Below are positions 60,930 through 61,481 of a stretch of 64,000 nt of DNA, piece by piece. How positions within the stretch are numbered: position 1 is the stretch's first letter; the number at the start of each line of letters is the position of its first letter. The position numbers were made by a program, and so were the translations under genes. Origin of the DNA: Escherichia phage KIT03; sequence record AP018932. One strand, 5' to 3'. The notes beneath the pieces are model-generated. The model saw only the letters and a list, made by a program, of their open reading frames with translations, did no database searches and was not told the DNA's origin.

Positions 60930-61107
60930 CTAAACGAATAGGTTCATGAATGCCATATCCCTGAACAGAAATTTCTGTCGTAGGATAAATTCCATCAATA
61001 TCACCCATATTCCAGGCTTCATTAAATTGCTGTTCGCCTGAATTACTAAACCACTCGGCGAAAGCATTTAGCACATCTTTAGAACCTTCAATAATTATCT
61101 TTGCCAT
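60886..61107 (-). CDS. hypothetical protein, 73 aa
   Basis: ORF. Confidence 0.45.
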   Translation of the reverse strand: MAKIIIEGSKDVLNAFAEWFSNSGEQQFNEAWNMGDIDGIYPTTEISVQGYGIHEPIRLVEYDLCTGEEVKYD

Positions 61108-61481
61108 TACAGACTCTCAGTAAAGGTACGAGCGATAACGTCGCGCTGCTGTTCCGGAGTCAGAGAGTTAAAGCGAACTGCATAACCGGATACACGGATG
61201 GTCAGCTGCGGATATTTTTCCGGATGCTTAACTGCATCTTCCAGAGTTTCACGACGCAGAACGTTTACGTTCAGGTGTTGACCACCCTCAATTTTAACTG
61301 TAGGCTGTGTTTCAATTTCAATTTCACGGGCATGCAAACCATAGAAAATTTCTGGGTCTACAAAAGAGTCCTCTTTAAAAGTTTTAGAGACAATAATTCG
61401 TGCTTGAATACCGTCTTCAAAATAAATAGTACCTTTATGCGTGCCTTCAAGAATTTGATATGCTTTCATATAACCTCTCAA
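61107..61481 (-). CDS. autonomous glycyl-radical cofactor protein (GrcA/YfiD-like), 124 aa
   Basis: C-terminal [29 protein letters not shown] glycine-radical motif; 3' half noticeably GC-rich. Confidence 0.75.

Follow-up and report, generated by a model that had tools for sequence, protein, structure and literature searches.

Probable overwriting of the radical-domain segment of the T4-like phage gene vs.6 by Escherichia coli grcA

The C-terminal glycyl-radical domain of pyruvate formate-lyase (PFL; PflB in Escherichia coli) is described in PMC8683613 as the part that proteins of the GrcA (YfiD) type replace. In the same text, YfiD and the Y06I protein of bacteriophage T4 are named as the two validated spare-part proteins for PFL (Wagner et al., 2001, as cited there): the PFL-activating enzyme (PFL-AE) puts a glycyl radical on YfiD or Y06I, and the complex of the spare part with oxygen-cleaved PFL restores activity. 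The radical on G102 of GrcA abstracts hydrogen from C419 of PflB (PMC12338860). Here we analyze the gene for a phage protein of this kind, vs.6, in a stretch of 64,000 nucleotides (nt) from Escherichia phage KIT03 (AP018932), referred to below as the window, which is that of a T4-like phage of the genus Tequatrovirus. Gene, annotation and biochemical role are already known, and it is the origin of the DNA that concerns us. We consider it very probable that Vs.6 is a PFL spare part of the Y06I type whose radical-domain segment was overwritten by E. coli grcA.

The vs.6 coding sequence (61107..61469, minus strand; 120 codons plus stop) is recognized as the orthologue of T4 Y06I by its sequence (99.2% amino acid identity to T4 Vs.6, and 119 of 120 residues identical in T4 strain 147) and by its place in the conserved cluster vs.8-vs.7-vs.6-vs.5-vs.4-(vs.3)-regB, as annotated for the matching region of phage RB51. 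The window copy resembles that of T4 in gene neighborhood and in carrying an E. coli-type patch, which in T4 forms a perfect run of 173 nt with the grcA allele of E. coli SK1144; unlike T4, which has T at tract position 21, the window copy carries the E. coli A21 state, and only six phage records match its tract at 99% identity or more. With E. coli GrcA it shares the C-terminal 60 residues, all identical, and 170 nt of DNA, and both are standalone proteins of about 14 kDa with the RVSGYAV motif; in contrast to this, the N-terminal part is only about one-third identical (21 of 63 residues) and is seven residues shorter in Vs.6, whose expression comes from a polycistronic cluster of the phage and not, as for GrcA, from the host grcA promoter. 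The radical domain of PflB (residues 697-759; 2PFL, 1H16) is about 78% identical to Vs.6 over 63 residues, and unlike PflB, Vs.6 has no catalytic barrel of about 700 residues and would supply the radical in trans.

Comparison of the gene by blastn with 5,426 complete E. coli genomes shows that its 3′ half alone matches (query positions 191-375, that is, 61107-61291), in every one of the 5,426 genomes, and that the match is chromosomal grcA, at 98.4% identity over 185 nt. Within it lies the host-derived patch (61117..61286, minus strand), of which 170 of 170 nt are identical to nt 205-374 of E. coli chromosomal grcA and which encodes G62 to T117, including the glycyl-radical motif. In the pairwise alignment the DNA is perfectly matched from 61286 to 61117 and essentially unalignable upstream of 61286, so that the edge of identity is a step, not a gradient. 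The unalignable part is the phage-native 5′ half of vs.6 (codons 1-61; 61287..61469, minus strand), which is AT-rich, conserved among T4-like phages, and related to grcA only as a distant protein homologue. At the opposite end, the last 10 nt of the gene (61107..61116, minus strand; ..G AGT CTG TAA) hold both differences from E. coli, at 61116 and 61113, which are synonymous and fall in the last three sense codons; similarity to grcA ends at the stop codon. These 10 nt are probably phage-native, given that the terminal GAG AGT codons are common to the distant Slopekvirus Matisse.

As a control, the whole window was compared with the same E. coli genomes, and the sole match was again this region (61103-61291), the same stretch also matching pflB weakly (79%). 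Conversely, when E. coli grcA with its flanks was searched against all phages, the start of the match was fixed at about nt 200 of grcA, where the block encoding EGGQH begins, in about 750 phage records, and the match never reached the vs.6 5′ half nor extended beyond the stop codon. These limits are where usable homology between grcA and vs.6 begins and ends.

The composition of the gene changes at the same place. The patch has a GC content of 0.50, compared with 0.339 in the vs.6 5′ half, 0.356 in vs.5, 0.300 in vs.7 and a window mean of 0.344 (standard deviation 0.040); it is the most GC-rich 170-nt stretch of the entire window, and no other reaches 0.50. The GC content at third codon positions (GC3) rises within vs.6 from 0.21 to 0.43, the latter value being equal to that of E. 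coli grcA. The per-codon log-likelihood ratio of E. coli versus phage codon usage is +0.085 in the patch, compared with −0.260 in the 5′ half and a phage mean of −0.262 (standard deviation 0.092), which places the patch 3.8 standard deviations above the phage mean, a score matched by 0.27% of phage windows of 59 codons. Leucine is encoded six times in the patch, each time by CTG, a codon that accounts for 7% of the leucines of the phage, and all three proline codons are CCG. An AT-ward drift within the patch gave no clear signal (11 GC>AT versus 8 AT>GC changes).

The first-pass annotation of this DNA had noticed the GC-rich 3′ and AT-rich 5′ parts of the gene and had proposed a comparison with host grcA by BLASTN; the compositional step is borne out, with codon usage switching at the same point, and the comparison yields identity well above the 69-83% typical of an old phage gene. 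Its description of vs.6 as a chimeric gene with a 3′ end of host origin holds with regard to the recent arrival of E. coli grcA DNA; in so far as it implied a fusion of unrelated parts, it has to be replaced by the overwriting of a patch within an old grcA homologue.

With respect to the donor, the tract was compared with grcA from 80 species-representative genomes, among which K. pneumoniae was not represented, supplemented with Klebsiella and Salmonella alleles obtained via the protein database. Over the last 180 nt, the window phage is 98.9% identical to E. coli, 94.4% to E. albertii, at most 92.8% to Citrobacter, 90.0% to Salmonella and 86% to Klebsiella, with E. coli and E. albertii being 95.6% identical to each other. 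At synonymous sites, the tract diverges (dS) from E. coli by 0.046, from E. albertii by 0.264 and from Salmonella by 0.57, and E. coli diverges from E. albertii by 0.20; the nonsynonymous divergence (dN) in the patch is zero in all 13 phages examined. In neighbor-joining analysis, the Tequatrovirus and Mosigvirus tracts form an exclusive clade with E. coli (290 of 300 bootstraps). Host grcA follows the expected species order, which argues that the E. coli copy was inherited vertically and that the phage copy is nested within it. The direction of transfer is from host to phage, at a time later than the split of E. coli and E. albertii. Thus, the segment has the hallmarks of a recombinant tract: identity and a perfect run far beyond those in other phages, low dS to a single donor, sharp breakpoints accompanied by a shift in composition and codon usage, and nesting within the donor clade.

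The gene that carries the patch is old and widespread. By tblastn, 1,587 phage records contain a Vs.6 homologue; among them are T4-like phages that infect Klebsiella, Enterobacter, Citrobacter, Cronobacter, Aeromonas and Vibrio, as well as T5-like phages and one jumbo phage of Yersinia. Likewise, vs.6 was present in all six T4-like genomes of an earlier comparative study (PMC1524935). A phage-type N-terminal half (MKAYQILEG...) is common to the homologues in Klebsiella, Enterobacter, Citrobacter, Aeromonas and T5-like phages. The patch is absent from Krischvirus, Karamvirus, T5-like and Aeromonas phages, where identity to any host over the last 180 nt is 69-79% and no perfect run exceeds 29 nt, a level that can be taken as the baseline for an old gene constrained in the same way at the protein level. 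Krischvirus lacks the patch even though it, too, infects E. coli. Across the other phage homologues overall, the 3′ halves are 69-83% identical to any host and the runs do not exceed 32 nt. Because vs.6 is old, widespread and of phage type at its N-terminus, the patch is best viewed as gene conversion of a pre-existing homologous segment, not as gene capture.

The patch itself is of later date. Between the window and the Mosigvirus copies (L095, L096, mar005p1 and MM02), identity is 67-69% in the flanking genes and 89.6% in the vs.6 5′ half, compared with 97.8-98.9% in the patch; dS between Tequatrovirus and Mosigvirus is 0.39-0.47 in the 5′ half and on average 0.14 in the patch. The lower dS and higher identity of the patch argue that it is younger than the Tequatrovirus-Mosigvirus split at the vs.6 locus, and it would have reached the two genera in separate events or else passed from one to the other by recombination among phages.

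Several variants of this locus were seen among the phages compared. In the Krischvirus phages JSE (L008, 1056-1586) and MIZ5 (L179, 726-1167), a homing/HNH endonuclease gene lies directly downstream of vs.6; homing endonucleases drive local gene conversion between phages. In the T5-like Salmonella phage Spc35 (L009) and in Aeromonas phage 31 (L010), the grcA homologue is located among tRNA genes, outside any vs cluster, and has therefore shifted genomic contexts. In phage OES_C-2 (L178), two codons are missing from the phage-native 5′ half (EIEIETQ to EIETQ), and the patch is one site off the allele of E. coli SK1144. Further converted lineages were sought in Slopekvirus (Matisse, KP15), Pseudotevenvirus (Miller, RB43) and Karamvirus, which were set aside: identity of their 3′ halves to hosts is 78-84% and points to no particular donor, as befits either old conversions or none. 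Within Slopekvirus, Matisse (L005) encodes LLDAVEH and KP15 (L102) LEDAVKH, differing at the two residues that separate Klebsiella and E. coli GrcA, and both are about 80% identical in DNA to the sampled hosts.

The following scenario of the conversion is drawn from its product. During infection, fragments of host grcA would pair with the phage gene over the conserved radical-domain region, where even unconverted phage copies have perfect runs of 20-32 nt with host genes. Recombination-dependent replication of the phage would then copy the host segment in, a homologous (homeologous) recombination event amounting to gene conversion. What the sequences themselves show is that in Tequatrovirus and Mosigvirus, the T-even lineages that infect E. 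coli, about 170 nt of E. coli grcA overwrote the part coding for the radical domain; the 5′ crossover lies where the EGGQH block begins, and the 3′ crossover falls inside the last 10 nt or so of vs.6. The outcome is a conversion tract limited by homology, in a protein whose working end equals host GrcA residue for residue.

Conversion of this kind probably happened more than once. The relevant data comprise 13 Tequatrovirus or Mosigvirus sequences, four E. coli alleles, two Klebsiella alleles and one metagenomic phage. In Jiaodavirus, a genus of Klebsiella phages, GC3 likewise steps up within the gene (from 0.20 to 0.55 in KP179 and from 0.24 to 0.60 in KPV15), and the encoded protein has the Klebsiella-specific LLDAVEH in place of the LEDAVKH of E. 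coli. The first 96 nt of the Jiaodavirus tract are 97.9% (KPV15) and 95.8% (KP179) identical to Klebsiella grcA, which ranks at the top of 86 hosts, with E. coli at 84-85%. The metagenomic phage, L113 of IMG/VR, agrees upstream with its sisters L109 and L112 and then enters about 80 nt that are near-identical to Haemophilus grcA (L071), including a perfect run of 56 nt; this Haemophilus-like patch is absent from L109 and L112, and the breakpoint is significant by a maximum chi-squared permutation test (P<1e-4). The IMG/VR loci L119 and L160-L167 were also tried as host-like phage genes and dropped, being host-type grcA or pflB fragments on contigs classified as viral.

Within E. coli itself, grcA is polymorphic at tract positions 9 and 21, and different phages mirror different alleles, which hints at repeated exchange. 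The window's phage matches the A9/A21 allele (e.g., FDAARGOS_497), with a longest perfect run of 170 nt; T4, RB51, L093, L096 and OES_C-2 match A9/T21 (e.g., SK1144), with longest runs of 170-173 nt; and L091 and CE1, both with G9 and T21, match the G9/T21 allele (e.g., O157:H7 NE1127). At position 21, T is ancestral in the enterobacteria and A arose within E. coli, and the patch of the window differs from the common phage type at one site only, position 21, where it carries the derived E. coli base. By a rough estimate, the chance of such a coincidence is about 0.01-0.03.

These patterns lead us to propose, tentatively and with somewhat less than even confidence, that vs.6 is a recurrent recombination sink in which host grcA repeatedly overwrites the radical-domain half across phage lineages and hosts, with at least two E. 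coli alleles, Klebsiella and Haemophilus as donors. If this is true, the spare part would be kept matched to the PflA and PflB of the currently exploited host, and the T4 group would harbor an ongoing gene conversion from chromosome to virulent phage, undescribed as far as we found, with a donor that can be resolved to the species or allele.

A number of considerations weigh against the overwriting of vs.6 by host grcA, or against its recurrence, and the evidence for recurrence as a whole is suggestive, not settled. T4-type phages degrade host DNA and use hydroxymethylcytosine in place of cytosine, and recombination from host to phage should therefore be rare. The exclusive clade of Jiaodavirus and Klebsiella, when the full tract is used, is recovered in only 105 of 300 bootstraps, and the 3′ part of the Jiaodavirus tract matches no sampled host well. 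The argument that E. coli served as donor more than once depends on two polymorphic sites. Where the patch ends on the 3′ side is ambiguous, with sites 171, 174, 175 and 177 showing mixed patterns among phages, and the function of Vs.6 is deduced from its orthology to T4 Y06I. Finally, the patch is still of the E. coli type in Tequatroviruses whose isolation host was Yersinia or Salmonella, so that conversion would be episodic instead of a continuous tracking of the host.

This last observation is also among those that would fit the most serious competing account, namely, a single conversion from one E. coli allele followed by spread among co-infecting Tequatrovirus and Mosigvirus phages, with the variants at positions 9 and 21 arising as parallel mutations. 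We regard this history as possible, if rather doubtful. The 5′ boundary is the same in the approximately 750 phage records mentioned above, but an identical boundary is to be expected in any case because it marks the end of homology to grcA. Nearly all members of both genera have G171 and T174; these bases, however, also occur in Slopekvirus and so look like retained phage sequence and not like marks of a single event. T21 is present in 12 of the 13 phages, and the A>G change at position 9 is a transition that could easily recur, but the one site at which the window patch departs from the T21 type is polymorphic in E. coli, and the base found there is the derived one of the host. Furthermore, the native 3′ ends differ, with 175T/177G in many Tequatroviruses and 175C/177A in Mosigvirus, and Jiaodavirus and L113 have independent host-matched patches of their own.

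As for the protein, Vs.6 contains a single Pfam domain, Gly_radical (PF01228, E=2.2e-18), and its best match in PDB is the nuclear magnetic resonance structure of YfiD (6OWR, E=4.6e-42), which aligns over YfiD residues 28-127; the second class of matches consists of PFL, over residues 697-759 (E=5e-26). At 120 residues, it is a small (about 14 kDa) standalone protein that is essentially a glycyl-radical domain, and its RVSGYAV motif places a glycine at the position of G102 in GrcA and G734 in PflB, both of which are features of the GrcA/YfiD class. Alignment with YfiD and PFL places the GGT codon of this predicted radical-bearing glycine, Gly95, at 61185..61187 (minus strand). HMMER aligns Vs.6 to YfiD from residue 22 onward, and this, together with the residual identity of the N-terminal parts, argues that phage vs.6 and host grcA are ancient full-length homologues.

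On the strength of the orthology to T4 Y06I (99%), Vs.6 of KIT03 would be activated by the host activase PflA, which would install the radical on Gly95, and would then dock onto host PflB whose radical domain oxygen has destroyed, taking the place of that domain. The restored PflB would split pyruvate into acetyl-CoA plus formate and would keep fermentative metabolism going in the infected cell. Formate is the reductant for class III ribonucleotide reductase, and the phage enzyme of that class, NrdD, may benefit indirectly from formate made by PFL.

A more direct link, in which Vs.6 is a spare radical domain for the phage NrdD instead of host PFL, is very unlikely. NrdD is encoded in the same window (41544..43361, minus strand; Pfam NRDD, E=1.8e-171), is the other glycyl-radical enzyme there and is likewise cleavable by oxygen, and an early comparative paper guessed at a role of vs.6 in nucleotide metabolism (PMC1524935). 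However, BLASTP between Vs.6 and the NrdD of the window gives no significant similarity (E=2.6), with the radical motifs unaligned; no NrdD structure is found among its PDB matches, in contrast to the approximately 78% identity with PFL; the domain is identical to that of host GrcA; and the biochemistry reported in PMC8683613 was done with PFL. The first-pass annotation had rightly recognized a GrcA/YfiD-like C-terminus with a glycyl-radical motif, and of the two enzymes that it suggested might be rescued from oxygen damage, PFL is retained on account of the reported Y06I activity and NrdD is not.

One phage of the T4 species, RB55 (L176), has a 13-nt deletion in vs.6 (at about 300-700 of the locus), where the gene is unannotated; it removes GYAV and shifts the frame, giving RVSALTL followed by a stop codon. 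Unless this deletion is a sequencing error, vs.6 is dispensable in laboratory propagation.

Apart from the number of events, three other accounts of the DNA itself can be considered. The first, capture of the entire gene from E. coli with subsequent rapid divergence of a 5′ half freed from constraint and no such change in the 3′ half, could appeal to the homology of Vs.6 with GrcA over nearly the full length, but is highly improbable: the phage-type N-terminal half also occurs in the Klebsiella, Enterobacter, Citrobacter, Aeromonas and T5-like phages, joined to 3′ halves that are not E. coli-like; the 5′ half of vs.6 is typical of the phage in GC content and codon usage; and divergence of this kind would sit poorly with a stepwise edge. 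The second invokes no DNA transfer at all, only purifying selection on a domain that has to fit PflA and PflB, combined with chance or convergent codon choice. The domain is indeed highly conserved in all phage and host homologues, in keeping with the dN of zero in the patch, but selection on the protein cannot fix synonymous sites, and other phages that encode nearly the same 59 residues are only 69-83% identical in DNA, with runs of at most 32 nt, against 170 nt and a dS of 0.046 here; moreover, the codons of the patch are preferred by E. coli and avoided by the phage. We count this explanation as refuted by the synonymous data and give it hardly any credence. The third, a merging of host reads into the phage assembly, would yield just such perfect host identity, but is refuted and all but negligible in view of the in-frame position and same junctions of the patch in about 640 Tequatrovirus and Mosigvirus genomes that were sequenced independently, those of T4 and T2 among them, and of the phage-specific synonymous variants that its copies carry.

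The nearest parallel to the overwritten vs.6 comes from marine cyanophages, in which psbA was reportedly found, by Zeidner et al. in 2005 and Sullivan et al. in 2006, to be a mosaic with host-like segments attributed to recombination with host genes. There, too, a phage copy of a host metabolic gene contains segments that are host-like in both sequence and composition. That case concerns cyanophages and photosynthesis genes, whereas vs.6 belongs to a classical coliphage that degrades host DNA; and unlike the segments of psbA, the vs.6 patch is a single perfect block of 170 nt with a donor that can be resolved to the species and possibly to the allele. To our knowledge, T4-type phages are usually described as having almost no recently acquired host DNA. 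We found no paper on a nucleotide-level mosaic in vs.6 or on host-matched patches in the other genera, in a search that did not extend to key older papers, where prior notice is possible.

The value of the finding is evolutionary: it adds no new kind of system, but places 170 bp of the E. coli chromosome, unchanged, inside a gene of a T-even phage. With host-matched patches also in Klebsiella phages and probably in a Haemophilus-associated one, vs.6 offers a small natural system for estimating the rate of recombination between virulent phages and chromosomes, and one in which selection for conversion through the fit of the spare part to host PflA and PflB could be tested. The patch would also record the host species in which a phage lineage recently replicated. 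On the practical side, the 3′ half of phage grcA cannot be told apart from host DNA and should be left out of markers and host predictions based on this gene; an assay lying wholly within it would amplify E. coli DNA. Phage grcA has been used as a PCR and quantitative PCR marker for Straboviridae in a 2026 paper (PMC12845203). Cross-amplification of the host was considered for that assay and is no problem, since the assay has its forward primer within the 5′ half, which is phage-specific.

Turning to the gene and its surroundings, the program-listed open reading frame (61107..61481, minus strand) has a TTG start, 124 codons and a C-terminal RVSGYAV...TESL motif. The extent of 124 residues given to the protein in the earlier reading must be shortened: the start used is almost certainly the ATG at 61469, which yields 120 residues and is the start of the coding sequence annotated in T4-like RefSeq genomes, whereas the TTG at 61481 overlaps the stop codon of vs.7. 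A ribosome-binding site, GAGAGG, can be read at 61474..61479 (minus strand), 4 nt upstream of this ATG. At the other end of the gene, vs.6 and vs.5 overlap by one base, the final A of the vs.6 stop TAA serving also as the A of the ATG that starts vs.5 (TAATG). In T4-like relatives, the RefSeq label for vs.6 is 'autonomous glycyl radical cofactor GrcA'. A megablast search with 60800-61900 returned 814 phage records, headed by RB51, wV7 and related Tequatrovirus phages at 97.7% identity.

The last 5 kilobases of the window carry, on the minus strand throughout, genes for T4 lysozyme (e), NudE, an internal protein, vs.8, vs.7, vs.6, vs.5, vs.4, vs.3, RegB, vs.1 and vs; among the neighbors of vs.6, domains were found for RegB, for vs.1 (SLT) and for vs.4 (Acb2/Tad1). 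A scan of 59000-63100 for promoters and terminators gave 17 sites, compared with 14.2 expected by chance. The internal-protein gene (62482-62955; DUF7412) is followed by lysozyme e (63044-63538). In the close relative RB51, denV (endonuclease V) is present between these two genes; in KIT03, a tblastn search with a T4 EndoV query, and with RB51 as the positive control, found no denV at 62482-63538 or elsewhere in the window. Two genes downstream of vs.6, the vs.4 open reading frame (60627-60929, minus strand) encodes the Acb2/Tad1 hairpin domain (PF24729, E=1.2e-19), a family of anti-CBASS cyclic-nucleotide sponges; as listed by the program, this frame begins at a TTG, and the annotated vs.4 of RB51 is shorter.

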